From an uncultured Gammaproteobacteria bacterium (GTDB lineage: Bacteria; Patescibacteriota; Microgenomatia; UBA12405), in NCBI GenBank assembly GCA_964448705.1, contig CAYUZS010000004.1:20105-84104 (forward strand): a DNA stretch of 64,000 nt, read 5' to 3'. Below the pieces are notes generated by a model. The model worked only from the letters and a program-made list of their open reading frames with translations, searched no databases and was not told the origin of the DNA. Positions 43,913 to 64,000 of this stretch are shown in pieces; position 1 is the stretch's first letter; the number at the start of each line of letters is the position of its first letter. A program made the translations under genes and the position numbers.

Positions 43913-43944
43913 TTTTGTCCGGACAACGTTATCGATTTACTGTT

Positions 43945-44442: not shown

Positions 44443-44517
44443 TTAATTCATCCCACAAGCATTCGTTCACCTTCAATTTTAACATTACTATAGACTATTA
44501 TTTCATTAACACCACCC

Positions 44518-44619: not shown

Positions 44620-44670
44620 AGTCTCTAAGATAACGATATTGAGTGAACAATATGATATCTCAATAATTTT

Positions 44671-45614: not shown

Positions 45615-45634
45615 AAATAATTATAGCCCAAATA

Positions 45635-47523: not shown

Positions 47524-47626
47524 TTGACTTCGTGTTTTCTTCGGTTATTATTATAAATAATAAAGCAAATAAAATAAATATCTCCTTGACCCATCAAGAT
47601 ATTAACAATATACTGACTATATTAAT

Positions 47627-48400: not shown

Positions 48401-48424
48401 TATAAAGTTATATAAATAATTAAT

Positions 48425-49204
48425 ATGCAAAAATATTACTTTGGCGATTGTAGAGATTTGATAAAAAATATTAAAGATAATTCTATAAATTTAGTGGTTA
48501 CATCTCCTCCTTATAATCTTCGTAAAAAATATGGTAAATATAGCGATGATGTAACTATAGAAGAATGGAAAAAATTAATATTTGAGACTACCAAGGAAGT
48601 AGTCAGAGTTTTGGCTCCAAATGGTAGTTTTTTTATAAATATATCCCCCATCCCTCAAAAAAAAACAAAAGAAATTATTCCATTAGACGCCCTTGCTTAT
48701 TCTATTGGGAAAGAGTGTGGATTATATCTTAGAAATTCTATTATATGGACTTTTAATAATATGCAAAATTGTTCAAACAGACTGAGTGGCAGATGGGAAA
48801 GTATTCTTTGGTTTGTTAAAGATATTAATAATTATGTTTTTAATTTAGATAAAGTGAGAGTTCCTTATATAACAAAAGGAGATAAAAGACTTGATCCAAA
48901 TGGAGGTAGAAACCCAACAGATGTTTGGTATTTTGATCGTGTAAATAATATGACTAAGAAAAAATTGGGGATAACGGATGCACCTTGTGTTTATCCAGTA
49001 CCAATGATAGAAAGAATATTAAAAATGTCTACAAAAGAAGGGGATAAAGTGTTAGATCCATTTTTAGGTAGCGGAACTACATTGGTGGCATGTTCTCGAT
49101 TAAAAAGAAATGGAATTGGTTTTGAATTAGATGAAAAATTCAAAACCATTATAGAAAAAAGGCTTAAAACCGAAACTGTTGTTCAATCTAGAATTGATTA
49201 TTAA
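48425..49204 (+). CDS. DNA amino-methyltransferase (N4C/N6A, beta class), second of tandem pair
   Basis: 'VVTSPPYNL' and 'LDPFLGSGTTLVAC'. Confidence 0.8.
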   Translation: MQKYYFGDCRDLIKNIKDNSINLVVTSPPYNLRKKYGKYSDDVTIEEWKKLIFETTKEVVRVLAPNGSFFINISPIPQKKTKEIIPLDALAYSIGKECGLYLRNSIIWTFNNMQNCSNRLSGRWESILWFVKDINNYVFNLDKVRVPYITKGDKRLDPNGGRNPTDVWYFDRVNNMTKKKLGITDAPCVYPVPMIERILKMSTKEGDKVLDPFLGSGTTLVACSRLKRNGIGFELDEKFKTIIEKRLKTETVVQSRIDY

Positions 49205-50310: not shown

Positions 50311-51104
50311 GATTTTAATTTATTTATTAATTCTTCAAAATTACCCATTTCGTGCAATGGTGGATAGAATTTTTCTGAATAACCAACCTTTGCAATTATT
50401 TTATAATTAGACATTTTAAAATCTCCATCTCTTTTTTTTCTTATAAATTCAATTGGATTATTATTTAAATAATCTGATATTTGCTCATTAGTATTAAAAA
50501 ATATCCCTTTTAGGTCAGGGAAATCGACCCAATGAACATAATAGACAGGTCTTTCTAATTCTGCATCTATTTCTATAAGCTGTTTTTTTATTTTTTCTGT
50601 ATCTAGTGTAATAGATCCTTCATAAGGTTCTCTATTTAAAAGTTTCCAAGATAGCATAAATGGAGCATTATGATATTTTAATTCTATATAAGCTTTTATA
50701 TTTCTCGTTTTGTCTAAAACTTGTATATCTGGTAACCTTCTGTTTTTAATATCAGCTCTCATCGCAAATATTTTTTTTGAATTTAGATAATCAATGAAGG
50801 ATTCTTCAAATTGTTTTCCTAATTGAACATCTAGACCTTTTATGGATTTGTTTCGTGGAGTCAAATAAAATTTTCTCGCTCTTTTATATAAATCTTCTAG
50901 GTCTGGAACCTCTTTATACAATTGAGGTGTATTTTTTATTAAAGATCTATCAGCAATATCTTCGTACATTTTTTTATAACATAGCTGATTAATATCTTCG
51001 AATTTTAGTTGATTTTCAAAAACAGGAACATTTTTTAAATATTCGATTTTAATTTTTTCAGTAAACTTAAGTAATTCTCTGTAACTATCTATGCTTTTAT
51101 CCAT
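50307..51104 (-). CDS. PD-(D/E)xK-fold nuclease; putative restriction endonuclease
   Basis: 'RLPDIQVLD...IKAYIELKYH' gives a PD...ExK arrangement. Convergent with the two MTases; 4-nt overlap with the TGT-like gene. Confidence 0.45.
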   Translation of the reverse strand: MDKSIDSYRELLKFTEKIKIEYLKNVPVFENQLKFEDINQLCYKKMYEDIADRSLIKNTPQLYKEVPDLEDLYKRARKFYLTPRNKSIKGLDVQLGKQFEESFIDYLNSKKIFAMRADIKNRRLPDIQVLDKTRNIKAYIELKYHNAPFMLSWKLLNREPYEGSITLDTEKIKKQLIEIDAELERPVYYVHWVDFPDLKGIFFNTNEQISDYLNNNPIEFIRKKRDGDFKMSNYKIIAKVGYSEKFYPPLHEMGNFEELINKLKS

Positions 51105-51289
51105 AATACTAACTTCTTTAATTAGAATAAATTAGGCAATTATACCTCTCTTAAGATCAAAAAATGTTTTTTTAAAAGTAAACTATCAATTTATTTATTA
51201 CCTAAGTACGTGAGTTTGGAACAAATCAAAATTAATTTATGGAGTATTACCGCATATATTACATGAAAAGATACGGAAAAAATGAAATT

Positions 51290-51341
51290 TAGCGGCGTAC
51301 CATTGATTTATTGTGAGTTCATCGAACTACCCAGTTAGAAA
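51290..51341 (+). repeat. repeat family C, copy 2
   Basis: TAGCGGCGTACCATTGATTTATTGTGAGTTCATCGAACTACCCAGTTAGAAAC. Confidence 0.7.
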
Positions 51342-51373
51342 CTGTTTTATGACTTTAAACTATAATTTACTTA

Positions 51374-51754
51374 ATGAGCATTTCGAAAAAAGTTTTTGAA
51401 TTAGCTAAATCACCAATTGGTGATTTAATTGTTGGTTTAGCTTTTGGAAAATTTAGCAAATTATTGCCTGTCGCCAGAATTAAAGAAACCGACAAAGTTA
51501 TCGCTTTTTGGCACCCCAAACCTTTTTGGGAAAAGCATATTGTCTTAGTTCCAAAAAAAGCTATTAAATCTATAGCTGCTTTAACCAAAGAAGACAGTGA
51601 TTTTATCGGTGAAATTTATTTAATAGCTAAAGAAATTGTTGAAGATTTGGGCTGGGAAAATAATGGCTACACTATTTTAGTCAACGGTGGTGAACGCCAG
51701 GAAATTGGTCAAATCCATTTTCACTTACAGTCAGGAAAACAGCTGAAACAATAG
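51374..51754 (+). CDS. HIT-family (histidine triad) nucleotide hydrolase
   Basis: 'GGERQEIGQIHFHLQSG' is the HxHxHxx triad. Confidence 0.75.
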   Translation: MSISKKVFELAKSPIGDLIVGLAFGKFSKLLPVARIKETDKVIAFWHPKPFWEKHIVLVPKKAIKSIAALTKEDSDFIGEIYLIAKEIVEDLGWENNGYTILVNGGERQEIGQIHFHLQSGKQLKQ

Positions 51755-51764
51755 ACAATAATTA

Positions 51765-51803
51765 ATTGTCACGACAACGAGCGAAGCAGGCAAGTCTGGA
51801 ACC
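51765..51803 (+). repeat. repeat family A, copy 2 (ATTGTCACGACAACGAGCGAAGCAGGCAAGTCTGGAACC)
   Basis: See copy 1. Confidence 0.7.
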
Positions 51804-52339
51804 TAGTAATTTTTTCCTTTACTACTATGATTTTTTTGACTTTCAAAATACGCTTGGCTAATTGATAAAGCAACTGTCATTTCGTTTGACCTAGGTTTAA
51901 TTTGGTTCCAATCAACCTTTATTACTGGATTAAATCCAGCTAAGTATTTTATTGCCCCAGTTTGGCTTTGGTCATGAGGATTTTCGTAAAAAATCCAAAA
52001 ACCAAAATCTTTCGACAGTTCATCTCCATAATAACCTGATGTAAGGTTTGTTCCACACTCTAAAAATTTATTACCATTCACATTAAGTCTCTTTATTTCA
52101 ATATATATAGTTTCTTTGCCCGGTGAATCGGATTCAATCCTTCCCAATTCTATATACCCTCCATTAGCCAAAGGAATTATCATCGACTTTGTCCCGTCAA
52201 TCTCTCTACCATCATTATCAATTGTTACCGGAAGCAAGGCTCTTTCTTTCCAAATACCACTAGCAACCATATAAGCTCTACTCTGAGTAGATCTTTTGAC
52301 TGGATCAAGATCAACTATATTGGTATTATTTTCTTTCAT
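51803..52339 (-). CDS. hypothetical protein
   Basis: ORF only; bounded by repeat A2 and the short C repeat. Confidence 0.3.
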   Translation of the reverse strand: MKENNTNIVDLDPVKRSTQSRAYMVASGIWKERALLPVTIDNDGREIDGTKSMIIPLANGGYIELGRIESDSPGKETIYIEIKRLNVNGNKFLECGTNLTSGYYGDELSKDFGFWIFYENPHDQSQTGAIKYLAGFNPVIKVDWNQIKPRSNEMTVALSISQAYFESQKNHSSKGKNY

Positions 52340-52340
52340 T

Positions 52341-52372
52341 TTGGCGGCGAACCATTGACGCAGTTAGAACCT
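52341..52372 (+). repeat. repeat family C, short form (TTGGCGGCGAACCATTGACGCAGTTAGAACC)
   Basis: Equals the long C form with the central 'TTTGTAGTGAGTTCATCAAACTAT' removed. Confidence 0.6.
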
Positions 52373-52375
52373 ATC

Positions 52376-52702
52376 TTATTCAACATCAATTAATTTCACA
52401 AAATCAATTTCAGGTTCCTCATATGGGTGAATTGCTTTGATTGTTTCTTTTACTGCTTTAGATCTTTCTTCAGGACAGATCATTTCAATTCTAACTTCTG
52501 GCTCATGAGAAAATTCTCCAACTTTTCCAATAGTCGGATTTGAGCCTTCTTCTGATTTCCAATTACCAATCCCTTTAGTAAAAAAACATGTGTGAGTGTA
52601 ATTTCCCAAAACACCAGCCCCAGCATCTGCAGCCGCATTTATGATTGAAAAAATTATTTTTTCATCATCTGGGCAAAAGACAAAAAGTTTATACACAATC
52701 AA
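52376..52702 (-). CDS. small ferredoxin-like-fold protein, possibly CutA-like
   Basis: C-terminal 'HPYEEPEIDFVKL' resembles the CutA 'HPYEVPEI' motif; weak. Confidence 0.3.
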   Translation of the reverse strand: MIVYKLFVFCPDDEKIIFSIINAAADAGAGVLGNYTHTCFFTKGIGNWKSEEGSNPTIGKVGEFSHEPEVRIEMICPEERSKAVKETIKAIHPYEEPEIDFVKLIDVE

Positions 52703-52746
52703 TTATAACAACAAAAAACATCAGTAGAATAGGGTAATTATATCTT

Positions 52747-52860
52747 GGCGGAGCAGGTGGGTCTGGAACCTTTCTATCCTTATAACTCTGTTCCCAAACC
52801 TCTGTCTTATTCTACCCCTTCTCTGAAGCTAAATGAGACAAATGAGACAGTATAAAAAAG
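52747..52860 (+). repeat. repeat family B, copy 2 (114 nt)
   Basis: GGCGGAGCAGGTGGGTCTGGAACCTTTCTATCC...GAAGCTAAATGAGACAAATGAGACAGTATAAAAAAG. About 95% identical to B3 apart from a 12-14 nt insertion. Confidence 0.75.
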
Positions 52861-52954
52861 GGAATGGTCGATTTTAACAGGTTCTCGATTTGTAAGCCTA
52901 TAAGATGTATAATTGTTACCGATATTGTGGTAAATCACATGAAATAAAAAAATA

Positions 52955-54085
52955 ATGAGTAATGAAAGACAGTTTACTAGGATCAAACAAGAAACTTGGA
53001 GTATGGCTTCAGGAATACAAACGCGTAGTCAAGTGGTTTCTGAAATTTTTCCTGCAGGAATGGATGCTAAACAAGATCAAAACATAAGATTCTTTAGAAG
53101 TTTAGCAGGCAGCGAAACAGACATATTTCTAAAACTTTTCACTGGAAGCAAATGGCAAGCGGACGCTGAGGTGGTAAACACCAGAGTCTTAACATCCGCA
53201 AAAGTAGAAGGGGTTGTTCCGATACTAGATAGTGAATCAACGGGAAACAATTCGTTAATCATTTACCCATATGTAGAAGGAAAGTCTTTTCATTCAGATG
53301 TCAGGTCTCCATCATATACTTCAAGAGTTATAGAAAGTACGAGTAATGTCTTGAGAAGATCGATAGCTTTGGAAGGTTTTAAAATCTTTAGAATTCCAGA
53401 AACTTTTTTAAAACAATATCCATTTCCAGAGACAGTATTTGCTGAACCTATATTCAAGCAGATTAACCAAGCTTATAGCCCTTTTTGGAAGTTGCGACAA
53501 ACAATCTGTACTCAAAACCCAGGTCTCTCGATGGATAGAACACCTCGAAATGTATTAATAACAAATAGGGGTGAAATCAATCAAATTGATTTCGAGCTGG
53601 TTTATCCCGATTCACCATTATTCGATCTATCAAAACTGCTTAGAAATGGTCCGGAATCTGGAGTGGCGAATGGAATAACAATTTTAGATGCAATAAAGTC
53701 CCCAGAATTAATTTTTGGAAAGTCAAATCCTTTTTCAAAAAGTGAAGAAAGTAAATTAGTTGATCAATTTATCAAAACCACATTACCGGGACAGGATAAA
53801 TCAAAGGCCGTACAAAATTACTGGCAAGTTTCTGCTCATACGCACATTTTTTACATTTCTAAATATTTGAGAAGATATAAAGAAGTTGCCGATATTGATG
53901 TAAAAGAGAATGCTTATAGAAGACTTGTATTTCATTTTGCTGGATTATTTTCCCTTAAAGATAAATTAATGGAACCGTATTTAGGCAACAAAACACCAAA
54001 TGTTGAAACTTTAACAGGAGGAGTCGAGAAAAAAGATGTTATAAGATTATTTGATTTATATAAAACATTAGCCCAACAAATATAA
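52955..54085 (+). CDS. protein-kinase-like-fold phosphotransferase (APH/choline-kinase-like)
   Basis: 'MDRTPRNVLITNRGEINQIDFELV' corresponds to the catalytic-loop Asp and Asn plus the IDFE block of APH/ChoK enzymes. Confidence 0.5.
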   Translation: MSNERQFTRIKQETWSMASGIQTRSQVVSEIFPAGMDAKQDQNIRFFRSLAGSETDIFLKLFTGSKWQADAEVVNTRVLTSAKVEGVVPILDSESTGNNSLIIYPYVEGKSFHSDVRSPSYTSRVIESTSNVLRRSIALEGFKIFRIPETFLKQYPFPETVFAEPIFKQINQAYSPFWKLRQTICTQNPGLSMDRTPRNVLITNRGEINQIDFELVYPDSPLFDLSKLLRNGPESGVANGITILDAIKSPELIFGKSNPFSKSEESKLVDQFIKTTLPGQDKSKAVQNYWQVSAHTHIFYISKYLRRYKEVADIDVKENAYRRLVFHFAGLFSLKDKLMEPYLGNKTPNVETLTGGVEKKDVIRLFDLYKTLAQQI

Positions 54086-54089
54086 TAAT

Positions 54090-55301
54090 ATGAAAAATAA
54101 GTGCGATATTTTTATCGTAATACCCTTCTTTAATGAACAAGCCAGACTTCCAGAAATTTTAGACAGTATCCTTGAATCCGCCAAAGATAAGTTTAAGGTT
54201 CATGTAGTCCTCGTAAATCACCAAAGTACAGACAATTCTGTTGAAATAGCCAAGCGCTATTCAAGTAATTTTTTTAAGTTCCAGATAATTGAGGAGACTA
54301 TTCCTATTCCTTGTGGTGGTCAGCCAAGAAATACCGGATTGAAAGAAGCTATAAAACAAGCAGAAGAGTTTTACGACGATAATTCCATTCCCATTGCTAC
54401 CCTCGACGCCGATGTCATTGTTTCTATAAATTTCATTCCAGAAATTATTGAAAAATTAAATACTGGTTTTGACATAGTTTCTTTTAGTGAAAGATACAAT
54501 CCAAAAGAACTGGTTGATTTTGTTGATAGTCAATTACAAAAGGACCTAAGCATCAGATACTTTATTGGTTTGAATTGGATTAGGTACCAAGTATTATGGG
54601 GATTAATTGATGCTGGTGTAAAAGAAACCCGTGGACCTGGTGGTTACGCCATGAGAGCAAGTACCCTAAAAGATTTAGGTCACAAGCAACCATTTGATGC
54701 TAATGGACAACCTGTCACTGGAGAAAACAATCGTCTTGGAATAATTGCTAACAGAAAAAAGCTAAAAGTATATTGCAGTAATTATTACTCCCAAGTCCAT
54801 CCTCGCCGAGAAATTGTTTCCTGCACTAATATCACTCAAAAAGGTTATTCAAAGAACAAAGACAATGCAGAAGTATTTAAACTCGCCCGGGAAGTTGAAA
54901 GCTATCCGATTCTATCTGAAGAGCAATTAAGCAATTATTTAATAAACGGAATCAAGCGGACTATAAGGATGGTCTTAATAAGAGCCGTCGCCTACGATAA
55001 ATTAGATGATATTAACCACTGGTTTACTCATCCAATTTGGCATCAACTCATTGCTCAATCAAAAGAATTTGTAAAACAAAACCACCCCACTGAAGAGACC
55101 TTGGAGGTCATCGGGAATGGGTTTTATAACGACTTGTTCAGTTCCGTGGTTTCACAAATTGGAGACAGTGAGTTTGAAGGCTTTGTTGATTTCATTATCC
55201 ATAAAATTCCCAATAACCAAGTACTTATTAATTGGATTAAAGACAATTCACTAATAATTGATCCAGATCCAGAATTTATTAACAATGAAAAAAGAAATTG
55301 A
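54090..55301 (+). CDS. glycosyltransferase family 2 (GT-A)
   Basis: 'IFIVIPFFNEQARL', 'VVLVNHQSTDNS', DxD 'TLDADVIVS'. Confidence 0.7.
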   Translation: MKNKCDIFIVIPFFNEQARLPEILDSILESAKDKFKVHVVLVNHQSTDNSVEIAKRYSSNFFKFQIIEETIPIPCGGQPRNTGLKEAIKQAEEFYDDNSIPIATLDADVIVSINFIPEIIEKLNTGFDIVSFSERYNPKELVDFVDSQLQKDLSIRYFIGLNWIRYQVLWGLIDAGVKETRGPGGYAMRASTLKDLGHKQPFDANGQPVTGENNRLGIIANRKKLKVYCSNYYSQVHPRREIVSCTNITQKGYSKNKDNAEVFKLAREVESYPILSEEQLSNYLINGIKRTIRMVLIRAVAYDKLDDINHWFTHPIWHQLIAQSKEFVKQNHPTEETLEVIGNGFYNDLFSSVVSQIGDSEFEGFVDFIIHKIPNNQVLINWIKDNSLIIDPDPEFINNEKRN

Positions 55302-56271
55302 AAAATATATAGTTGATCCCGAAGCTTATTACCGAGATTTATATATAAATCTTGGAATCAGAGACAAGGCTGATCAATTAATTCAGTCACTCGGTTCAAT
55401 GGCAGAACCAATTAGGTATACCCATGATTTGTGGTATTCCAAAACGAAACCTGTTTTACCTGCAATTATGGCTCTAGAAGCTGGGGTTCCTCAAGATAAG
55501 GTCGCCAAAGTAGGTGCAGTAGTTGATGTCTTATGGACTTTGTCTGTAGTTGTTGATGATATTCAAGATAAAGATGAAACTCGAAGATCAAAACCTGCTG
55601 CTTGGCGAGTCTATGGTGCTGATAACACCTACCATTCCGCAGAAGCTGGTTTAGCTGCCACGGTCAAGTATTTATCAAAAGAAATTGGACCATATGCAGG
55701 GCAATCTTGTGTAGACAGTGTCAATCTAGGTATGGCATCAATTAAAAAGCATCAAGCCTTTGACTTGGCTGTCAGACCTAGTACATTGCATCAAAATTAT
55801 TGGGAACGCGACGCCTTTTTTTCATCCCTGCCAATTGAAGTATTGCTACCTGATCCAAAAGACCCTCGAAGAATTGCCTCCCTTGCATGCCTGGAGAATT
55901 ACTATATTGGCGGGCAATTAGGTAATGATATTCAAGATCTTACTAGACCTGAACCTAATGGATTATTACGGCTCAGCGATATCAAAAACGGTTTAGTAAC
56001 CATACCGATACAAAAGCTATGGAGTCAACTAGATGAGAGCGAAAAACAAACTTTTGAGAAAGTCTTTGGTCGAAAGGAGCTTGATGATTCTGGATATAGA
56101 GCAATTAAGTTAATGGTTGAAAAGTATAATCTAGCAGAACAAATTGTTATGGATATATCTGAAAGTTATAATAAAGCCATAAATCAGGCTGCTGGGGCAA
56201 TGAATCCTGATGATCAGCAAGTGTTCAAGTCACTTTGTGAAAGCCAAAAAGCAAAGTTCTTAGCAAGATAA
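55258..56271 (+). CDS. class I isoprenoid synthase-fold protein (terpene synthase / polyprenyl synthetase-like)
   Basis: First Asp-rich motif 'VVDDIQDKDETRR' (DDxxD...RR). Second motif degenerate to 'NDIQDL', closer to terpene-synthase NSE/DTE than to prenyltransferase DDxxD. Likely start at Met 55285. Confidence 0.45.
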   Translation: MIQIQNLLTMKKEIEKYIVDPEAYYRDLYINLGIRDKADQLIQSLGSMAEPIRYTHDLWYSKTKPVLPAIMALEAGVPQDKVAKVGAVVDVLWTLSVVVDDIQDKDETRRSKPAAWRVYGADNTYHSAEAGLAATVKYLSKEIGPYAGQSCVDSVNLGMASIKKHQAFDLAVRPSTLHQNYWERDAFFSSLPIEVLLPDPKDPRRIASLACLENYYIGGQLGNDIQDLTRPEPNGLLRLSDIKNGLVTIPIQKLWSQLDESEKQTFEKVFGRKELDDSGYRAIKLMVEKYNLAEQIVMDISESYNKAINQAAGAMNPDDQQVFKSLCESQKAKFLAR

Positions 56272-57147
56272 CTAAAGCCAAATTTCATGGATTCCTTCAA
56301 GTTTCCCCAATCTTCCATGGGAAACTGAAGCTTTTGATCTAACATATCCGGTTTGGGTACCATCGGGGAGCAACGCAAGTTTCTTCTCACTCAAAATTCC
56401 AGTCAGATGTACTGATGAATCAATATCTAAGTTAGTCAAGTCAAATCTAGTTGGAAATGTTGTTCCCATCTTCTCTGATCTAGAAAACTCAGAAGTGGCA
56501 AATCGTCTTACATGATCAGCCTTGATTAATCTATCTTTCTCCCATAATAGAATATGCGATTCTGTTTGTGAAAAACCATATACCATTGTCAATTCTTCGC
56601 TAAACAATCTTCCAAATTGCCAACCTCTTAAAAAGTAGGGTAATATCTCTCGATTATTCATTTTGTCCGCAGGATCTTCATAGATAAACCAATTATGATC
56701 ATGATATCCTCTCCCAGAAAAATCCAAACTAACTCCGTCTTTTATAAGTTGCCCGCTAACTCGTGCACGGGGAATCTCTATTTGCCACCTCATGTTACCT
56801 TGGTTAATTGTAACCAGTTGAGGTTTGATTTCCGGGGTAAATTGTAGCTGACAGTTTACGTCGGAAGTGTTCAATCTCAAGTTTACTCCTGATGTATCAG
56901 CCCTTAATTCCTGACCAGAAATTACAATATTTCCTTCTTTTAGGTCAGCCACACCCTGTTGGTGAATTGACGACTCTACTCCATCGGGTGAGTTAATATA
57001 AGTTGAAACTGTTGAAGGATTTATGCCAATTCTTGGGTAAAATATACTTATTATCTTCCATCCATTCTGATCTTGAGCATCCACATATTTCCACTCTGTG
57101 TGAGCAATTGGGTGAAGGGAGGAATCTTTGTTAATCTCGTAATTCAT
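56272..57147 (-). CDS. CrtC/AttH-like (hydroxyneurosporene synthase family) putative hydratase/hydrolase
   Basis: 'FSGRGYHDHNWF' resembles the recalled AttH/CrtC family block 'G.GY.DH.WG'; beta-rich, 291 aa. Confidence 0.4.
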   Translation of the reverse strand: MNYEINKDSSLHPIAHTEWKYVDAQDQNGWKIISIFYPRIGINPSTVSTYINSPDGVESSIHQQGVADLKEGNIVISGQELRADTSGVNLRLNTSDVNCQLQFTPEIKPQLVTINQGNMRWQIEIPRARVSGQLIKDGVSLDFSGRGYHDHNWFIYEDPADKMNNREILPYFLRGWQFGRLFSEELTMVYGFSQTESHILLWEKDRLIKADHVRRFATSEFSRSEKMGTTFPTRFDLTNLDIDSSVHLTGILSEKKLALLPDGTQTGYVRSKASVSHGRLGKLEGIHEIWL

Positions 57148-57201
57148 AGGTGTTTATAAATTGTGTGCAATTATACGATATTTCGCGCTATAATTCATAC
57201 T

Positions 57202-57891
57202 ATGAACTCATTTCAAGAATTTAACCGATTGTGGACTCAAAAGAAGGTCAAAACTCCACTTTTTATCTTTATCGGTGGTTATTGCGGGACAGGGAAATCA
57301 ACTTTAGCCAAGGCTCTTCAGGAAAAAATTGTTGAATCTACTATTGTTCCTACTGGAATTGTCCGTGCTACTTGTAAACCATTTTTGAAAAATATGGGAG
57401 AGATTTACGGATGCCACACCTATCGACTAGGGCAATTCAGTCAAAACGATATTGAATTATTTGCAAATTATAAAAAGCAGTCATCAATATTAAATGAGCC
57501 TATTAAAGAATTATGTAATTTTGCCACTTCAGAAATGCAAAACTTAATTATTGACGGTAACCACATTTTTCCTGAGTTGGTAAATTCTATCGAAACAAGT
57601 CTGAAAATTGATGTTTATATGAAAACTTCTGATGAACTACAGTTAATAAAAAACATGACCGACATTACCCATCCTCGTATTATGAATGAAGTCGAGATGG
57701 AAACAGCAAAGAAATTGCACCAAATGACAGCGACAGAAATTAGTCAATCAAAAACAATGTTTGAATATAACCAATCTAGTCTGGCAGTTGAATATGTTGA
57801 AAAAGAGTTAGGTGTTTTACTCGAAAATATCGTGGGTGTCAGAACCACCAGTAGAATAGGTGTTTCTGCTACTTCGTCTCTGGTTTTCTAA
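57202..57891 (+). CDS. P-loop kinase-like protein
   Basis: Walker A 'IGGYCGTGKSTLAKAL'. Track start 57163 is probably an extension; Met 57202 precedes the conserved block. Confidence 0.5.
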   Translation: MNSFQEFNRLWTQKKVKTPLFIFIGGYCGTGKSTLAKALQEKIVESTIVPTGIVRATCKPFLKNMGEIYGCHTYRLGQFSQNDIELFANYKKQSSILNEPIKELCNFATSEMQNLIIDGNHIFPELVNSIETSLKIDVYMKTSDELQLIKNMTDITHPRIMNEVEMETAKKLHQMTATEISQSKTMFEYNQSSLAVEYVEKELGVLLENIVGVRTTSRIGVSATSSLVF

Positions 57892-58827
57892 TAAAACCTT
57901 TTTAGTTAATTGATTGTATTCAAGCTTCGGTTTTTTATATCTCCGGTAATCACCTTCAGCACCATCCAATCCTTTTTCCAGATAGCTGTTTAAAAAGTCA
58001 ATAAAGTTAGCCTCATTTATTTGGTTTTCTTCAAACCTGTCTTCAAAAGTTTTACCAGGGTGAGCCATTATTTTTACGAAGGGAAGCTCGATTACTTTCT
58101 TAACTATCTCCTCATTGATTGGCAAGGTGTCAAGAGGCCATGGTACAACCTTGTCAAAAATATATCCAAGCGCGTATTTGGGAGCTTGTTCAAGAGGAAT
58201 ACTAAACTTAGTTGCAAAAGCTTCGAGATTTATTAGGTTAAAAGGTGCCAACAACATACCCAAATGCGGTTTGCTAACATAATCTCTTCTTATTTCGAGA
58301 ATTTTTCCAGTTCTTAGGTCAACTCGTGAAGCGTTTTCAAGAGTTATATATTTTAGGATTTTGTCTTTCTCATCCTCGGTCTTATTCTTCCAATTCATCC
58401 ATTCTATCTGGTCACTTTTCTGCAAAAACTCAATAATCTTATTGATTGAGTCAGATACATAACCACTTCTAGTCTTGTTTAATTCGTTTACTAAAGTGCT
58501 AATTTTCTCTCGGTATTCTTCACTAATACTATTTTCGACGTTGTCGTACACCAGAACATCAAGACCACCGCCACATTCAATTTCAACTCCCGGTATTAAT
58601 GAAATGCCACTTTGTATCGCCAACTGGAAGTTTTCTTCTGTATAAGCAGCAATAGAATTATGATCAGTAATCGAAACCAACTTAAGTCCTTTAACTACTG
58701 CGGAATTTATTAAATCAGTAGGAGTATTCTTTCCGTCCGAAAAAATGGTATGGCTTTGAAGATCAAAGTCACTAGAATTTACTTCTTCGGGAGCGTTTAT
58801 AAGAAACTTATTCAGTACGTTAGTCAT
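57817..58827 (-). CDS. PHP-domain (polymerase/histidinol-phosphatase-like) metal-dependent phosphoesterase
   Basis: 'LQSHTIFSDG', 'VSITDHNSI', and C-terminal 'GGSDTHD' His/Asp ligands. Confidence 0.7.
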   Translation of the reverse strand: MTNVLNKFLINAPEEVNSSDFDLQSHTIFSDGKNTPTDLINSAVVKGLKLVSITDHNSIAAYTEENFQLAIQSGISLIPGVEIECGGGLDVLVYDNVENSISEEYREKISTLVNELNKTRSGYVSDSINKIIEFLQKSDQIEWMNWKNKTEDEKDKILKYITLENASRVDLRTGKILEIRRDYVSKPHLGMLLAPFNLINLEAFATKFSIPLEQAPKYALGYIFDKVVPWPLDTLPINEEIVKKVIELPFVKIMAHPGKTFEDRFEENQINEANFIDFLNSYLEKGLDGAEGDYRRYKKPKLEYNQLTKKVLLENQRRSSRNTYSTGGSDTHDIFE

Positions 58828-58930
58828 GGCTATATGTTATCACCCTAAAGAATCTTTCAAAATATCCAGACATGAAAAAAGATGAATTGCATTTCGGTAA
58901 AAAGTTTTTCTACGGATTCCTTCGGATTCA

Positions 58931-59030
58931 GCGGAGCAGGTGGGTCTGGAACCTTTCTATCCCTATAACCCTATGTCTTATCCTACCCCTTCTTTGAAGC
59001 TAAATGAGACAAATAAGACACTATAAAAAG
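58931..59030 (+). repeat. repeat family B, copy 3 (100 nt)
   Basis: GCGGAGCAGGTGGGTCTGGAACCTTTCTATCCCTATAACC...GAAGCTAAATGAGACAAATAAGACACTATAAAAAG. Confidence 0.75.
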
Positions 59031-59093
59031 ATACGTGGTAAAACAATGATATGGTTTGACACTCAAATTTAATATAGACAACAGTTGGAATAT

Positions 59094-61232
59094 TTATGCT
59101 GTAACCTTGGGTTTGTTGATAAAATCCATAAATTTAGTCATTTCAAGTTCCTTATTCTGAAACCAGTTTGTTGACCAAATTCTATATACAACATAACCCA
59201 TATGTTCCAGTTCTTTTTGTCTGTACATATCATACGCATAGGCTTCTTCTGATTGGTGGTACGACTTCCCGTCACACTCTAAAACATAGTTATGCCCATT
59301 GTACTTTATAACAAAGTCTAATCTGAATCCTCCTACTTTATGTTGCTGTACAACATCTTCCTTTTTGAATTTGTCCAACAATAATTCATATACTTCCTCC
59401 TCAAAAGGAGATTCTGAAAGACCATCATCATCAAATATAAGCTTCGGCTTTTCAAAACTTTGGAGTTTCAGTTCTGACAAAATACCTTCTGCTAGTACAC
59501 TATCTTTGTTTGAAATCGCTTCTGCGTAAGCCAAGTAAGCATACAATATTCCTCTTTTATTATTTCCACCTTCGCCTTTGATTAGTTCGGGATAAGACAC
59601 ATACTTTTCTTTTGGTATTGATGTACAAACATACACTTTATTCTTAGCCCTAGTAATTAAAACATTTAGTAGTTTATATCCCTCAATTCTATTTATTCTT
59701 GCAAAATTCTGAGAAAACTTACCATCAACACCATAACCATAAGTAGTGGAAATGATAATTATGTCCTTTTCGTCACCTTGTATGTTTTCAAGGTTTTTTA
59801 TGAAGAGTCCACTCTCTTTAAGGGCCAAATATTTTGTCAAAAAGTCAGAATCTGACTCTGCTACTTTATTCAAAGACTCGATGATTAAATTTCTTTGGTT
59901 GATATTAAAAGTAGCAATACCGACAGAAGGATACTTATTATTTGTGTTTAGTTGTATTTCATCTTTAATAATTCTGATAATCTCAGCAACCTCTGTAGGG
60001 TTGGTATTAGATTCATATCTGCCGTTCACAGGAATAAATTTTATTGGCGTATATTCTGATAACGCAGGAAAAGAAACTAAGTTTCCACCATAAAAAGCAG
60101 CATTTGAAAATTCAATAAGTGCCGGATGATTAGATCTATAATGATAATCCAAAGATGATTTATTAATATCTCTAAGATTTGAAGCATACTGAAGTAATGA
60201 TTCACTATCTGCTAACTCATCTTGTTCATTGTCATATTCTTCAAACTCATCATGAGCTTCTTCAAAGGTATTATTCGAACTTAAAAAGTAGTTAGAAGGG
60301 GGCATTTGATGCTCATCTCCGGCAATTATTTTATATTGACCTCTAATCAGACATGCGAACGTATCGGATATTCTTAATTGACTAGCTTCATCGAAAATTA
60401 TGACATTAAACAATCCCTGCTTTAGGGGTAATATGGCATTTGCAGCACTTGGATTTGTTAAGATTATCGGGAAAAGAGAAGTAAATAAGTCGAAATCTTT
60501 TTCGATTATCTTCCTTAACGAGTTCTTTGGACCAGAATTATTTTTTCTTAAGTTATAAAGGGTATTAAAGTTACCAGGGTATGAACTTAGTCTCAACCTT
60601 CTTTTAGTGTTCCACTTTGACTTAATCTGTTGGATCTGTTTTTCTTTAAGTTTGTTATATACAACGGATAACTCGACCAACTTCGCATCTGATTTATTGA
60701 AACCCACAGTCGATTTACTGTCGAAGTTTAGGAGTGACTTTTTAAAATACCATGCCATAAACACATTTTTCCAGTTCTCTGTAGGTATTTCTTTTAAAGC
60801 ATTAATGATATTTATTTCTGTTTCTGTTTTATTGTCTGAAAGATAATGCCTCCAATGGTGAAAATTTTCATATGAATCAAAGTTATTAATTACGTTTGTA
60901 ATGTTGTCATATATCGATAAATAATATTTATTTAAAGAATCAAAATCCTTAAAATCAGTATATTTTTTGTATGTGAAGCTATAAATTTTAGTATCAAGCA
61001 AAGTAACTAATTTTGAATCATTAGTGTTCAATTCTTTTTCAATTTTTTCTATTTCTTTAATTTTTTGATATTTTTTATTTAAATTCTCAAGAACACTTAC
61101 TGCATGTTCGTTCAGATCTTTAAAAGATACAAACGTATTTTTTTCAGGAAGTAATTCGATTGATAAGTATTTCTTTATTAAAGGCGCATCTTCCTTAAGC
61201 GATTTTAATGTGTCTACAATTTCTTGTCTCAA
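59094..61232 (-). CDS. SF1 (Upf1/DNA2-like) helicase C-terminal region fused to DUF559/Vsr-like endonuclease-fold domain; Walker A absent, probably a 5'-truncated gene remnant
   Basis: Motif II 'VIIFDEASQ'; 'LNVLITRAKNKVYV' motif VI; C-terminal 'DGKSYHQSEEAYAYDMYRQKELEHMGYVVYRIWSTNW'. No GxxxxGK[ST] anywhere in the 270 aa before motif II. The ORF starts 15 bp from the IS end. Confidence 0.5.
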   Translation of the reverse strand: MRQEIVDTLKSLKEDAPLIKKYLSIELLPEKNTFVSFKDLNEHAVSVLENLNKKYQKIKEIEKIEKELNTNDSKLVTLLDTKIYSFTYKKYTDFKDFDSLNKYYLSIYDNITNVINNFDSYENFHHWRHYLSDNKTETEINIINALKEIPTENWKNVFMAWYFKKSLLNFDSKSTVGFNKSDAKLVELSVVYNKLKEKQIQQIKSKWNTKRRLRLSSYPGNFNTLYNLRKNNSGPKNSLRKIIEKDFDLFTSLFPIILTNPSAANAILPLKQGLFNVIIFDEASQLRISDTFACLIRGQYKIIAGDEHQMPPSNYFLSSNNTFEEAHDEFEEYDNEQDELADSESLLQYASNLRDINKSSLDYHYRSNHPALIEFSNAAFYGGNLVSFPALSEYTPIKFIPVNGRYESNTNPTEVAEIIRIIKDEIQLNTNNKYPSVGIATFNINQRNLIIESLNKVAESDSDFLTKYLALKESGLFIKNLENIQGDEKDIIIISTTYGYGVDGKFSQNFARINRIEGYKLLNVLITRAKNKVYVCTSIPKEKYVSYPELIKGEGGNNKRGILYAYLAYAEAISNKDSVLAEGILSELKLQSFEKPKLIFDDDGLSESPFEEEVYELLLDKFKKEDVVQQHKVGGFRLDFVIKYNGHNYVLECDGKSYHQSEEAYAYDMYRQKELEHMGYVVYRIWSTNWFQNKELEMTKFMDFINKPKVTA

Positions 61233-61310
61233 CTTGTAAGAATCTTTGACCAGTACCCCTTAAACTAGACCAGTTAGCGCACATGGTTTAATAGTTAAGG
61301 AGGTACTTTT

Positions 61311-61559
61311 ATGCCAACAATTAATAAAGAAGTCAAACAAGAAATTTTAGATAAAGTTAAATCAGGTAAAACAGTTAAAGAAATAGCTACCCAATACGGT
61401 GTTTCTGATCGAACCATTTACGCTTGGTTGAAAAAAGGAGTCAGTGATAATGTTTCTATCCTGGAATTAGGAAAATTCAAAAAAGAAAATCAAATCCTTA
61501 AAGAAATCGTTGGTGCTTTAAGTGTGGAATTGGAGAGATTAAAAAAAAAGACCAGATGA
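61311..61559 (+). CDS. IS3-family transposase OrfA (HTH)
   Basis: AAGGAGG Shine-Dalgarno 7 nt upstream; 'TVKEIATQYGVSDRTIYAWLKK' HTH; leucine-zipper-like C-terminus; A9 run at 61541-61549 just before the stop. Confidence 0.8.
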   Translation: MPTINKEVKQEILDKVKSGKTVKEIATQYGVSDRTIYAWLKKGVSDNVSILELGKFKKENQILKEIVGALSVELERLKKKTR

Positions 61560-61650
61560 GCCATCTTTTTGTCACTGGTTACTAAATGTTGTCAAAACCA
61601 GATTAGATTCTAAATTAATTAGTTTTAGTAAAAACCAAATCATTAAATTA

Positions 61651-62436
61651 TTGGGTGTTTCTAAAGCCAATTACTTTTACAAATCAATTCAGCCATCAAA
61701 AGACGAGATATTAAAAGAACAGATTTTATCAGTTCTGGAATCAAATCCTAGTTATGGTCACAGAAGGATTGCTCTAGCTCTGAGTATCAACAAAAAGAGA
61801 GCTAAAAGAGTCATGAAGCTTTATGGGATTAAACCTTACAAGCGGAAAGCCAGATGGAGAAAGCGAAGAGATGAAAGACGGCCGGAGGCCGTCTTCTCCA
61901 ATCAAATTAAAGGTTCTTTCCCAATTGTCCCCAATCTTACTTGGGTGTCTGATTTTACTTATCTTCGATTTAATTCAAAATTCATTTATCTGGCTACCTT
62001 TATGGATTTGTACACCCGAGAGATTGTAGGCTGGAGTTTAAGTGCTCGCCACACCAAAGATCTAATCATTAACGCTTTCTTTGATGCTTTTGAAAACAAA
62101 GGTGTTCTGCCTAAATTTGTTCATTCGGATCAGGGATCGGAATACAACTGTTTTGAATACACCAAACTAATCAGTGATTTAGGAGTCACTGTATCCATGA
62201 GTAAAAAAGCTTCTCCCTGGGAAAACGGTTATCAGGAATCATTTTATGATAATTTCAAAACTGATTTAGGATTGGAGTTTGACCGATTTAATTCTGTTGG
62301 TGAATTTGTCGAAGCCATTCATCAACAAATTAATTACTACAATCAAAGAAGAATCCACACCACTCTGAAGATGTCCCCGGTACAGTTTAAACAGCAATAC
62401 CTTTTACGCCAAATTCAATTTCACAAATCGGTCTAA
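61651..62436 (+). CDS. IS3-family transposase OrfB (rve/DDE integrase core)
   Basis: 'WVSDFTY', 'HSDQGSEY', 'ENGYQESF' DDE-region blocks. Its frame is open back to 61543, overlapping the orfA tail. Confidence 0.8.
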   Translation: MGVSKANYFYKSIQPSKDEILKEQILSVLESNPSYGHRRIALALSINKKRAKRVMKLYGIKPYKRKARWRKRRDERRPEAVFSNQIKGSFPIVPNLTWVSDFTYLRFNSKFIYLATFMDLYTREIVGWSLSARHTKDLIINAFFDAFENKGVLPKFVHSDQGSEYNCFEYTKLISDLGVTVSMSKKASPWENGYQESFYDNFKTDLGLEFDRFNSVGEFVEAIHQQINYYNQRRIHTTLKMSPVQFKQQYLLRQIQFHKSV

Positions 62437-62454
62437 CAAAAGGGGTACTTGACA

Positions 62455-63359
62455 GAATCAACGTCAAAAGAGGTCTTCGAGCCAAATGCGAAGCCGGATG
62501 GCGCCCAGGATCAGCTCCTGTGGGCTATATCAATCGGCTCACTGAAAATCGAATTGCCTATATTGATCTAGACCCAGAACGTGCCCCGATCGTTAAAGAA
62601 ATCTTTGAAAAAGTAGCCTATCAAGGTCATAGTGGCAGAACTATAAAATATTGGCTAGATAAAAGTGGATTCATAACTAGAGCTGGCAAAAGAATGGCTA
62701 TTAGTGAGGTTTATCGGGTATTAAGAAAACACTTCTACTACGGAGAGTTTGAATTTCCCGAAGACAGTGGGCATTGGTATCACGGCAAACATCCACCGAT
62801 AATAACCAAAGAACTTTATGATTTAGCTCAAAAACAAATTGCAGTTCCACCCAAAGAATGGAACAAAAAGTCTTTCCCGTTTAAGGGATTATTCAAATGC
62901 GGTCATTGCGGAGGTTCGATTACAGCCGAGGACAAATACAAGAAATTAATAAGCGGTAAATTCCGCCGTCATGTATATTATCACTGCGCTAGAACCATCG
63001 ATTATGATTGCGACCAACCCTACATTACCGAAGATGATTTGGTCCGGCAATTATTAGCAAAAATTAACGAAATTGAATTTAATCAAAAAGCCGTTGATGA
63101 AAAAATGAAACATGAGATTGAGCGATATCATCGCCTTCGATCCGATGTACTGCACCAAGAAATGTTTGAAAGGCAACTTGAAGTAATGGATTATCCAATC
63201 ATTAAAGAAAAATCACCAGAAGAGCGCATTAGAGGATATGTGATCCATGTTTTGAAAACTGGATTCTCAGAAGAAAAACAGGAAATACTGGCATTATTTA
63301 AGACCAGATTCATTTTAAAAGATAAGCAAATAATTAAAACCGAAGAAAACCCGATTTGA
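62455..63359 (+). pseudogene. large serine recombinase, 5'-truncated (recombinase domain + zinc ribbon + coiled-coil retained; resolvase catalytic domain missing)
   Basis: Frame is open from the IS boundary: '...INVKRGLRAKCEAGWRPGSAPVGYINRL' is the resolvase-to-recombinase linker. The zinc ribbon is 'CGHCGGS...YYHCAR'. No resolvase domain lies on either side of the IS. Confidence 0.6.
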
Positions 63360-63516
63360 TATCTATTGATGTCTTTTAAATTGGAAAAACCGGTATAAAA
63401 TGTCTGCCAAGGGGTAAAAACTCTGTTGTCACTAATTTTTACTTAACTAAAAGTGTTTGAAGGAAGCAATTCCCTGGTGTCGCTTATTAGTTAATGTAAG
63501 AGGAGGTGAATAGTAA

Positions 63517-63687
63517 ATGAAACAGTTTACTGTCAAGACCGGTCAAAAAGCTCCTGAGTCTGGTATATACCGGGCAAAAGGTAGTTACGTTGAAATCGCT
63601 CTTTCTAAAGACGATCGAGTCCCACCAAATAACTTTGGTAAGACTCCGAAATTCGTCTTTATGCATGGAACGAAAGGTGGTCGATAA
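63517..63687 (+). CDS. YjzC-like small protein (56 aa)
   Basis: Strong RBS AGAGGAGGTGA; 'KTGQKAPESGIY' resembles the YjzC-family 'GEKAP..GVY' motif; terminator follows. Confidence 0.4.
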   Translation: MKQFTVKTGQKAPESGIYRAKGSYVEIALSKDDRVPPNNFGKTPKFVFMHGTKGGR

Positions 63688-63692
63688 TCTAC

Positions 63693-63713
63693 AGCAGGGG
63701 TTTTACCCCTGCT
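63693..63713 (+). terminator. intrinsic terminator (AGCAGGGGTTTTACCCCTGCT + T-rich)
   Basis: 8-bp GC-rich stem, 5-nt loop, followed by CTTATATTC. Confidence 0.45.
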
Positions 63714-63858
63714 CTTATATTCATAATACACCAAAGAAAACATCCCCTCGAGGACATGGGTCTGGAACGAAATCAAAGCTAAACAGGAACAAATGAATTA
63801 TTGGTCAGGGGAGTAGCACCACCTATATTACATGGAATGATAGGGAAAAAACGATAAT

Positions 63859-63945
63859 TGGCGGAGGGAGGGGGATTCGAACCCCCGAGCCTTTTACAGC
63901 GCACGCTTTCCAAGCGTGTGGAATGAACCACTATCCGATCCCTCC
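63859..63945 (-). tRNA. tRNA-Ser (anticodon GGA), class II with long variable arm, CCA encoded
   Basis: Reverse complement folds by hand: acceptor GGAGGGA/TCCCTCC, anticodon stem CACGC/GCGTG with loop TTGGAAA, variable arm about 15 nt, T-arm GGGGG-TTCGAAT-CCCCC, then GCCA. Confidence 0.8.
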
Positions 63946-64000
63946 AATACTTTTTTTTTAATTTGCTGGTATTCTAAATATCCTTTGTTGGATTTTAGAT

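Follow-up and report, generated by a model that had tools for sequence, protein, structure and literature searches.

The question raised by this locus is how a block of accessory genes came to be assembled beside a single tRNA gene, and what part a short recurring repeat has played in it. The window examined (the whole stretch of 64,000 nt, positions 20,105 to 84,104 of contig CAYUZS010000004.1, registered as an uncultured Gammaproteobacteria bacterium) is core chromosome over its left 43 kb, and accessory genes recognized with Pfam fill its last 21 kb, from about 43.0 kb to the tRNA-Ser(GGA) gene at 63859. This gene (63859-63945, minus strand; called by ARAGORN and matched by the Rfam tRNA model with 53 bits) turns its 3' end towards the accessory region and constitutes its anchor. 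The repeat, here named B, occurs in the region in three full copies. Judging from sequence comparison, the best explanation for the interval between 43.0 and 63.9 kb is a mosaic island at the 3' end of tRNA-Ser(GGA), which site-specific recombination would have built and which was later reworked by insertions, deletions and an IS3-family insertion sequence (IS). On balance, and by no means certainly, B would be the junction site of this island, of the kind represented by the attachment (att) sites of integrating elements.

The three full copies, B1 (58928-59068), B2 (52745-52883) and B3 (44518-44659), are all located on the plus strand, antisense to tRNA-Ser(GGA). They yield nhmmer E values of 6e-41, 7e-38 and 4e-32, respectively, B3 being the most diverged, and their pairwise identity is 74-84%. 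The initial annotation of this DNA had found these copies and quoted their strings correctly. It had also noticed that B2 and B3 are highly identical beyond their tRNA-like part, which is the case, although the conserved unit in the window measures about 140 nt and not the 100 nt or so that it had given. Similarly, the likeness of B2 to the end of the tRNA gene is real (19 of the 26 nt of a tRNA-end 26-mer, and 17/26 for B1), with the correction that the initial run of identity comprises the first 9 nt (TTGGCGGAG) and not 10. Apart from the tRNA itself, nothing in the 128 kb of strand searched matches this 26-mer better than B2 and B1, the background maximum being 16. The TGG that complements the CCA is present only in B2 among the copies of the window, B1 having TCAGCGGAG and B3 GAGTGGAG. 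Judged inside the window alone, the tRNA likeness of B is borderline, because the probability that Markov shuffles of the window reach 19 matches is 0.0125 in the register first chosen and 0.20 when the 26-mer is moved by one base. Moreover, the local alignment score between the B consensus and the window's own tRNA-Ser is reached by 69 of 500 shuffles, and is thus not significant.

The window is not the only place where B can be found. A scan with a degenerate pattern of the tRNA-like part of the repeat returned 15 genome stretches and 24 metagenome stretches (fetched loci are designated here by L numbers), and after removal of chance matches in high-GC DNA, B was kept in 11 low-GC loci from 10 metagenome-assembled genomes (MAGs), labelled Shapirobacteria, Woesebacteria, simply 'bacterium', or Gammaproteobacteria (this last label being probably wrong), as well as in about 18 metagenome contigs. 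In these loci, at least 25 in number and attributable to candidate phyla of the Microgenomates type, B measures about 145 nt and is 80-91% identical between genomes even where the flanks diverge or are unrelated. The labels of these loci, and those of recombinase homologues, suggest that the window itself also derives from Microgenomates. The viral contigs scanned for the tRNA-like part gave no match, and no description of the repeat was found in the literature.

B is made up of a head of about 45 nt (GCGGAGCAGGTGGGTCTGGAACCTTTCTATCCCTATAAC), which is also found alone, and an arm of about 100 nt, and the linker that connects these two modules varies. The head, of the form ...CTGCTCCGC, reads ...AAAGGTTCCAGACCCACCTGCTCCGC(CA) in the tRNA sense, and it imitates the part of tRNA-Ser(GGA) that runs from the T-loop to the terminus. 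The arm holds two direct and two inverted copies of ATGAGACA, a motif also present as TGTCTYAT; these motifs are read as predicted protein-binding sites. In 36 distinct copies, eight of which carry TGGCGGAG, the conserved sequence sets in exactly with (T/G)GCGGAG, which complements the discriminator and CCA of the tRNA, and the sequence upstream of this boundary is unrelated from copy to copy. The linker is a place of small rearrangements: insertions of 8-12 nt are seen there in B2, L009 and L034, and one of about 48 nt, flanked by the direct repeat TCTTATT, separates head and arm in L016 (536-582) and L017 (6978-7024).

When the head was compared with all the tRNAs in the fetched loci, six tRNA-Ser(GGA) variants ranked at or near the top, with 16-19 matches in 26. 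The variant of L029 matches at 19/26, and at 13 of the last 14 nt (CCCACCTCCTCCGC versus CCCACCTGCTCCGC). Other tRNAs (Thr, Arg and Gly) reach 10-15/26, one tRNA-Asp reaches 17 and tRNA-Ser(CGA) 16. For the tRNA-Ser genes of L029 and L023, none of 500 shuffles attained the local alignment score with B. In addition, the variant heads CTCACCCTCTCCGC and CTCACCCTCCTCCGC hold acceptor-like segments identical, or nearly so, to other natural tRNA-Ser ends. The proposed relationship between the B head and the 3' end of tRNA-Ser(GGA) is therefore supported, by the boundary in the 36 copies, by the best-matching tRNA variants and by the shuffles.

The association is also one of position. In nine loci (the window, L005, L015, L018, L021, L023, L029, L033 and L056) the reverse complement of B lies on the 3' side of a tRNA-Ser(GGA) gene and in the same orientation as the tRNA. 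The ARAGORN-called gene adjoins B in L005, L018, L021, L023, L029 and L033, L015 has the conserved flank Y (described below) beside a tRNA that is cut by the end of the contig, and in L056 B is 19.5 kb from the tRNA. In the approximately 200 kb of sequence fetched, about 0.3 such loci would be expected, according to our own estimate of one tRNA-Ser(GGA) gene per genome of about 0.6-1 Mb, and the link between B and this tRNA is far beyond chance. Polarity is equally strict, since in nine of the ten loci with several copies all of them share one orientation (L013 holds one weak match on the opposite strand). The few copies near other tRNAs (Asp, Arg and Ser-CGA) are at distances compatible with chance.

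These data bear directly on the model of the initial annotation, in which three integrase-bearing elements had integrated in turn and the displaced resident tRNA ends had decayed into B1, B2 and B3. The orientation and order of the copies fit this model, as do a recombinase remnant at the tRNA-proximal end of the island and the fact that B2 and B1 are the window's two best matches to the tRNA end. Nevertheless, independent decay cannot produce the same sequence, with its 100-nt arm and a T-loop-like TTCCAGA that is common to the copies and not legal in a functional tRNA, in at least 25 loci. The copies of different genomes are far closer to each other than to any tRNA, and the tRNA-Ser resident in the window is the poorest-matching of the Ser(GGA) variants. 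Furthermore, the interval between B2 and B1 corresponds to a conserved block, encountered elsewhere without B; only one B is present in the closest relative whose recombinase element is intact; and recombinases were not seen near most B clusters. Large serine recombinases, the family to which the remnant belongs, exchange strands at a 2-bp crossover and generate no long direct repeats, which also counts against successive integrations as the source of the copies. In this strict form the model is improbable, and in large part already refuted. B is conserved as a family of its own, and is therefore better read as a recombination site on the side of the element or cassette that mimics the tRNA target.

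A different possibility is that B is mechanistically unrelated to the tRNA and represents a dispersed intergenic repeat, either a small non-autonomous element or a patch of homology for RecA-dependent swapping of adjacent genes, whose tRNA likeness would be ancient or accidental. This would agree with B being the sole sequence common to many otherwise unrelated contexts, with the gain and loss of genes directly beside it in L008, L009, L016 and L017, and with the borderline tRNA match inside the window. It would also agree with several B loci (L003, L004, L016 and L031) in which no tRNA was seen within 4-8 kb on the expected side. It is, however, hard to reconcile with strict same-orientation clustering, with a boundary that falls exactly at the equivalent of the tRNA terminus, with the excess of tRNA-Ser(GGA) loci and with the specificity of the head for Ser(GGA) among the tRNAs compared. 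B also lacks the terminal inverted repeats and target duplications of a transposable element, and we regard this explanation as quite unlikely. Identification of B as a miniature inverted-repeat transposable element, or as another non-autonomous transposon, was considered separately and rejected, as its ends (GCGGAGCAGG... and ...AGTTTGAAC) are not inverted repeats and its flanks show no duplicated target. The initial annotation had regarded B at loci other than tRNA genes and without adjacent integrase genes as evidence against an origin at the tRNA. This was encountered in part, as no integrase was seen near B and some loci are without a tRNA, while the tRNA-Ser(GGA) link still exceeds chance.

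Comparison with relatives showed where B is situated with respect to the changes that the island has undergone. The closest relative with long contigs is a single 37-kb contig, fetched as L045 and L056. It presents, in this order, a His_Phos_1 gene, B, a Nudix gene, a gene for a 175-aa protein, a second Nudix gene, an HD_4 gene, an HD gene, a block of six genes, a recombinase element of 9.2 kb, a conserved flank (Y) and tRNA-Ser. Relative to it, the window has three private segments: 44426-46175, which begins with B3; 47508-52896, which ends with B2; and 58843-62454, which begins with B1. Synteny with L056 stops at 44425 and homology resumes at 52897; at the other end, synteny with L045, L056, L052 and L057 stops at 58842, beside B1. 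The distal limit of synteny with L056 is marked by A1 (43852-43944, plus strand), a short variant with a degenerate B head; the corresponding position in L056 is occupied by a full B (2141-2277 of the reverse-complemented locus), immediately next to the orthologous Nudix gene. Since B1, B2 and B3 stand at the edges of private segments and A1 at the limit of synteny, four B or A copies of the window are each within 100 nt of a breakpoint.

The six-gene block of the window (52955-58827), flanked by B2 and B1, encodes a 376-aa protein, a family 2 glycosyltransferase (GT2), a polyprenyl synthase, a 291-aa protein, a P-loop kinase and a PHP protein, according to Pfam. It is also found in L052 (79% nucleotide identity), L053, L056 and L057. 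In L052 and L053, searches within 4-10 kb of the block found neither B nor Y nor a tRNA, nor the repeat X' described below. Segments bounded by B copies, the occurrence of which elsewhere had been raised in the initial annotation, do exist in the case of the B2-B1 block, in L052 and L053 without B. In L052 the block lies between direct copies of a different sequence of about 36 nt (CTAGCACTTCAAGAAATGCCATTACCCTGATCC), at approximately 4012-4050 and 10470-10510. The right copy starts directly after a run of N, so that a scaffolding artefact is possible.

Other loci exhibit comparable discontinuities. L018 and L029 have in common, at 91% identity, the tRNA, a first cassette, a first head and one further gene, beyond which they diverge. 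Their second head stands as an islet of conservation, with flanks that are unrelated, and its similarity stops at CTCCGCA. The arrangement of B3, followed by Nudix and GNAT genes, is shared with L016, L017 and L008. Within the same species, short-read assemblies end inside B2 and B1, as illustrated by a Logan contig of 6129 nt (L042/L054) that corresponds to window positions 52832-58960; B thus fragments islands in metagenome assemblies. No alternative strain-level arrangement around B1 was found in the same-species assemblies, whose contigs stop at B1 and B2.

The recombinase that may have acted at this locus has left a remnant at 62455-63359 (plus strand), 500 nt from the tRNA. Of a large serine recombinase gene, two-thirds remain here, at the 3' side, with Pfam matches to PF07508 (Recombinase) and PF13408 (Zn-ribbon); its resolvase domain is gone and its frame is open up to the end of an IS. 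Full-length homologues, of which there are more than 2000, measure 430-455 aa and combine Resolvase, Recombinase and Zn-ribbon domains; their sources are labelled Shapirobacteria, Levybacteria, Roizmanbacteria and Patescibacteria. The genomic contexts of three homologues were fetched, giving seven loci on four distinct contigs, with 83-87% identity. In all three, the order is the same as in the window: recombinase gene, small open reading frame (ORF), Y and tRNA-Ser(GGA). In the window the small ORF encodes 56 aa (63517-63687, plus strand), and a small ORF occupies the equivalent place in L045. The tRNA-proximal position assigned to the remnant by the initial annotation is consequently that of the intact genes in four contigs. 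On a contig of 176 kb, the L003 stretch with its B and the stretch with the recombinase neither overlap nor have genes in common. Upstream of the intact recombinases there are a helix-turn-helix gene, a weak terminase-like match, a ParB-methylase gene and variable restriction or defence genes, and judging from this gene content the intact elements are a prophage-like or satellite-like family integrated at tRNA-Ser(GGA).

Y is a conserved flank of 118 nt (63741-63858, plus strand) between the recombinase module and the 3' end of the tRNA. It adjoins tRNA-Ser(GGA) at 82-88% identity in L045, L046/L047, L048-L051 and L023. Its distal half (about 63745-63800) is a diverged and internally deleted copy of B, which contains, at 63759, the GGTCTGGAAC that the initial annotation had correctly reported as a core-only B fragment 90 nt from the tRNA. 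When Y was searched for beside other B copies, it was present only in L004 (the Y-like left flank of B2 is not significant). There, Y abuts a B head instead of the tRNA, at the same TTGGCGGAG junction, and therefore the B head has replaced the tRNA end at least once. As a side observation, MAGs labelled 'uncultured Gammaproteobacteria' or 'Pseudomonadales' (L003, L004, L006, L007, L013, L015, L016 and L046) have a GC content of 28-41% and hold the same B elements as Shapirobacteria and Woesebacteria, together with the recombinase or its Y flank in L046 and L004; the taxonomic labels of these low-GC MAGs look wrong.

The IS that truncates the recombinase gene (61247-62454, plus strand) has an OrfA with HTH_Tnp_1 and an OrfB with the rve (DDE) domain, and terminal inverted repeats TGACCAGTACCCC and TGTCAAGTACCCC, which match at 21 of 30 positions and start with TG, as is characteristic of the IS3 family. 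It has removed the resolvase domain on one side and truncates a helicase-nuclease gene on the other, without a target duplication. That gene (59094-61232, minus strand), which is 5'-truncated and holds AAA_11/AAA_12 and an MTES_1575/DUF559 nuclease domain by Pfam, belongs to the window-specific segment and is missing at the equivalent position in L045/L056. A YibE/F-like gene just past a tRNA-Arg(CCG) is cut, in L001 (2880-3010), by the right end of another IS3 copy, which is related to the first. Taken with the lack of a duplicated target at 61247/62454, this second copy suggests that IS elements have mediated deletions on either side of the two tRNA genes.

The window holds further repeats whose order is informative. 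The distal-most one, u1 (43024-43119, plus strand), is of a type named X' and is the probable outer border of the island. A relic junction, u2 (51218-51366, plus strand), consists of a Y-like part (75% identical to 63786-63864), a tRNA-end look-alike (TTTAGCGGCG) and an X' part (77% identical to u1). Both u1 and u2 end in GCCGCTAA, and u2 gave no Rfam or tRNA match even at permissive thresholds. X' also closes the L005 array distally, terminating there in GCCGCCA. From the tRNA outwards, the nested order is therefore tRNA.Y, 12.4 kb, X'.Y (u2), 8.2 kb and X' (u1). Such nested direct repeats are of the kind predicted by tandem accretion, and this order, which the accretion of two Y-ended units would leave, suggests at least two such units, unit 2 being tRNA-proximal and unit 1 distal. 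Under this reading, X' would represent a distal arm plus a tRNA-end look-alike. Together with the nine loci in which B lies 3' of the tRNA and the four contigs with the recombinase beside it, the nested repeats support the broader claim of the initial annotation that the island was built at tRNA-Ser.

A second short and diverged head, A2 (51744-51815, plus strand; GAGCGAAGCAGGCAAGTCTGGAACC), gives a weak nhmmer match and is preceded by a palindrome-containing stretch, AATTGTCACGACAACG. In the A copies (43868-43884 and 51761-51777), a near-palindrome, TTGTCACG(A/T)(C/T)AAC / TTGTCGTGACAA, lies a few bases past the pseudo-tRNA terminus, and it also accompanies some heads elsewhere (L018, about 890-905; L031, about 8440-8455). 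It could be a second protein-binding site of a sub-family of the repeat.

The comparisons establish the repeat family with its boundary and polarity, its association with tRNA-Ser(GGA), its place at synteny breakpoints and the linkage of recombinase, Y and tRNA. From them we infer that B is a recombination site, and with it the acting enzyme and the position of the crossover. The proposed pathway would operate as follows. A recombinase would recognize both the tRNA 3' end and its mimic, the likeliest candidate being the family of large serine recombinases that has left its remnant at 62455-63359. Incoming DNA would be joined either to the tRNA terminus or to a B head, and every join would leave a B-type site, co-oriented with the tRNA, between modules. 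Repeated rounds would generate strings of B in one orientation with accessory genes between them. The junctions seen (tRNA.Y, B.Y and X'.Y) are all attL-like. Even if B is an att-type site, the assignment of the large serine recombinase as the enzyme is tentative, and the chances that it is right are below even.

Several observations weigh against this pathway. We know of no large serine recombinase that needs long arms or leaves long direct repeats; the long arm of B is therefore more in keeping with a tyrosine integrase, and no such enzyme was seen among the B neighbours checked. The 25 commonest Pfam families found in 112 ORFs neighbouring B (families with rarer single matches lie outside this count) include neither a recombinase nor a Phage_integrase family, and none of the ten larger neighbours checked individually is a recombinase. 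In L045-L051, the 10 kb upstream of the intact recombinase genes gave no B, and the single B of L056, where the recombinase element is likewise intact, is 19.5 kb away. No clearly empty tRNA-Ser site was present among the fetched loci, each of which has either Y plus a recombinase or a B array downstream, and no excised circle was observed. In the window, the segment 47508-52896 cuts an HD gene that is full length in L056, so this join is not a clean site-specific event. Finally, the head hardly varies from genome to genome and does not follow the sequence of the resident tRNA; of the Ser(GGA) variants, that of the window matches it worst. In L009/L041 a B copy lies 20 nt from a tRNA-Thr(GGT) in the opposite orientation.

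A number of loci are much more compact than the window, and they raise an alternative. L005 reads tRNA-Ser, gene, head, gene, head, gene, head, gene, X', with four co-directional ORFs, and its heads start 0-18 nt from the stop codons of the first three. At 4584-4600 of this locus, the ATG of the first ORF overlaps the encoded CCA of tRNA-Ser (..CCGCCATGAAATGT..), so that the tRNA and the first cassette are joined without a spacer. Across the compact arrays, the head is placed at -11 to +26 nt from the stop codon of a co-directional gene, and heads are spaced 0.45-1.1 kb apart in L018, L021, L023, L029, L033 and L028. When all copies are counted, co-directional neighbours outnumber anti-directional ones by 22 to 10 on the arm side (upstream) and by 24 to 6 on the head side (downstream). 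The leading Pfam families among the 112 neighbouring ORFs include NUDIX (10 ORFs), GNAT (8) and methyltransferases.

All this would be expected of an integron-like platform, in which the tRNA-Ser 3' terminus would act as an attI-like acceptor and the head of about 45 nt as the attC-like site of a cassette, while a recombinase encoded elsewhere inserted single circles of gene plus head, one by one, at the tRNA end. The alternation of genes and heads from tRNA-Ser in L005, the short head spacing, the cassette-typical cargo, the mostly co-directional neighbours and the absence of a visible recombinase next to the arrays fit such a platform. On the other hand, no integron integrase was seen among the neighbouring ORFs checked, and the head is not an imperfect palindrome like attC, nor does it have a stable single-strand fold. 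The first two cassettes of L018 and L029 are common at 91% identity, which indicates that the arrays are not very dynamic. Each co-directional cassette is followed by a site in L005, L018 and L028, but not in the window, where units measure 1-8 kb and genes lie on both strands. Neither a circular cassette nor a cassette reused at another array position was found. As an account of B this platform is doubtful, although it deserves more weight than the readings qualified above as improbable or quite unlikely. In its wider form, it would mean that Microgenomates-type bacteria capture genes in an integron-like manner, with the tRNA-Ser(GGA) 3' terminus as a fixed acceptor, B heads as cassette sites (sometimes with the arm of about 100 nt) and a serine or other recombinase acting in trans. 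That form, too, is offered as a speculation with rather low chances; if true, a cassette system would have arisen independently in bacteria whose genomes are very small.

The preference of heads for sites just past a stop codon, together with the usual co-directionality of the reverse complement of B and its neighbours, also brings up the possibility that B acts as RNA, either as a tRNA-derived 3' untranslated or processing element or as a small RNA recognized through its mimicry of the T-loop and acceptor. A weak collinear similarity of the arm to two tRNA-Ser variants, over their D-loop and variable arm (z of about 2), and a few compensatory changes in one hairpin, point the same way. However, Rfam searches of the island and u2, at both gathering and permissive (E<=10) thresholds, returned tRNA as the sole match, none of it at B, and ARAGORN called no tRNA there. 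Single-sequence folds of the three copies on both strands gave z-scores of -0.3 to +0.8, that is, no signal. The consensus folds of 15 full copies are weak (-7.5 and -8.5 kcal/mol on the two strands, for about 145 nt), with double changes in only 3 of 14 predicted pairs. Read as a tRNA mimic, B has a broken T-stem (2/5 pairs) and an acceptor without its 5' partner strand. Moreover, the neighbour is anti-oriented in about a third of cases, and it is the tRNA and the array, rather than the adjacent gene, that B follows in its orientation, B2 being an example. A role as RNA is accordingly the least probable of the alternatives, and very improbable in absolute terms. Two related ideas were rejected on their own account. 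Homology of the whole element with tRNA-Ser beyond the 3' end is not robust, z being about 2 for only two of ten tRNAs. The promoter, small-ORF and Shine-Dalgarno readings of ...ATGAGACAAATGAGACACTATAAAAAAGGAG fail on inspection by eye, because the hexamer spacing is wrong and differences in homopolymer length break the frame.

Taking B again as an att-type junction site, its closest known counterparts are tRNA 3'-end islands with tandem accretion. These include the arrays of integrative and conjugative, integrative and mobilizable, and cis-mobilizable elements of streptococci (reviewed in PMC5704250 and PMC5812530). The site at the tRNA 3' end, the tRNA-proximal recombinase and the co-oriented tRNA-related repeats at internal and distal junctions are alike, and the nested repeats of the window (tRNA.Y, X'.Y, X') fit accretion. 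Unlike in those islands, the repeat here is a separate conserved element of about 145 nt and not a copy of the resident tRNA. Most clusters show no integrase, units may be single genes, and the recombinase is a large serine enzyme instead of the usual tyrosine integrase.

Prophages with large serine recombinases, such as phiC31, Bxb1 and TP901-1, share with the present family the Resolvase, Recombinase and Zn-ribbon architecture of the full-length homologues, the location of the gene at the end of the element beside the attachment site, and phage-like genes in the elements. Known large serine recombinases use sites of about 40-50 bp without arms and leave no long repeats, which is not what B looks like. 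To our knowledge, a conserved tRNA target accompanied by a family of tRNA-mimic sites has not been described for these enzymes.

Integrons and clusters of attC sites lacking integron-integrases (CALINs) are similar in their compact co-directional single-gene arrays, with a conserved site of one polarity after each gene and one fixed end, in their Nudix- and GNAT-rich cargo and in the many arrays without a neighbouring recombinase. They differ in that no IntI was seen here, in that B is conserved in sequence and not in structure, and in that the fixed end is the terminus of a tRNA gene and not attI. Finally, modules mobilized by Xer at dif sites (integrative mobile elements exploiting Xer, IMEXs, and plasmid dif sites, pdif) also bound accessory modules with short conserved sites and depend on a recombinase encoded elsewhere. 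The B head, however, lacks the dif-like dyad with its spacer of 6-8 bp, resembles a tRNA end instead, and occurs in same-orientation strings and not in inverted pairs.

Little has been described of mobile DNA and gene exchange in bacteria of the candidate phyla. Should B be a recombination site, it would provide a simple sequence marker for hypervariable islands of Microgenomates, with their Nudix, GNAT, methyltransferase and restriction-modification cargo. It would also point to an abundant family of large serine recombinases with a conserved natural target, the tRNA-Ser(GGA) 3' end. The pairing of this recombinase with tRNA-Ser(GGA) could be useful for genome-integration tools, and the breaking of short-read assemblies at B helps to explain why islands are fragmented in MAGs.

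With regard to the remaining content of the window, the core chromosome on the left includes dnaA (11204-12559), dnaN (12865-14034), a 5'-3' exonuclease, thioredoxin reductase and a peptidase M3. Because dnaA and dnaN are side by side (11204-14034), the replication origin is probably in the intergenic region at 10.3-11.2 kb, only about 30 kb from the start of the island. Immediately left of u1 are an ORF of 284 aa (42139-42993) and an ABC-type transporter ORF (40264-42033), with core genes further left.

The cargo of the island recognized by Pfam includes four Nudix hydrolases, one GNAT, several methyltransferases, and HIT, HD, kinase and PHP proteins, in addition to the tandem N4/N6 DNA methylases, the GT2/polyprenyl-synthase block, the truncated helicase-nuclease, the IS3 element and the recombinase remnant. 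The window-specific segment 44426-46175, with B3 at its left edge, encodes Nudix, GNAT and Nudix proteins. The HD-domain gene (47200-47523), truncated by the window-specific segment of 5.4 kb, retains 107 codons, compared with 226 in its L056 orthologue. The window-specific cargo that follows (47508-51217) comprises, between 47627 and 51104, a tandem pair of paralogous N4/N6 DNA methyltransferase genes and then two convergent genes without a Pfam match. It is probably a restriction-modification module, the nuclease subunits of which are not recognized.

The other side of the tRNA gene shows traces of its own. Directly 5' of tRNA-Ser, and reading into it, there is an ORF for a GIY-YIG nuclease (Pfam 1e-15; window 63946-64000, L001 1472-1830), past which lies a second copy of the first 45 nt or so of tRNA-Ser, split by a GC-rich hairpin of 20 nt. 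The same interrupted 5' fragment is present in L045 (11925-11998) only 35 nt from the tRNA, where there is no GIY-YIG gene. On account of these interrupted fragments and the GIY-YIG ORF, the 5' side of tRNA-Ser also looks like a target for insertion.

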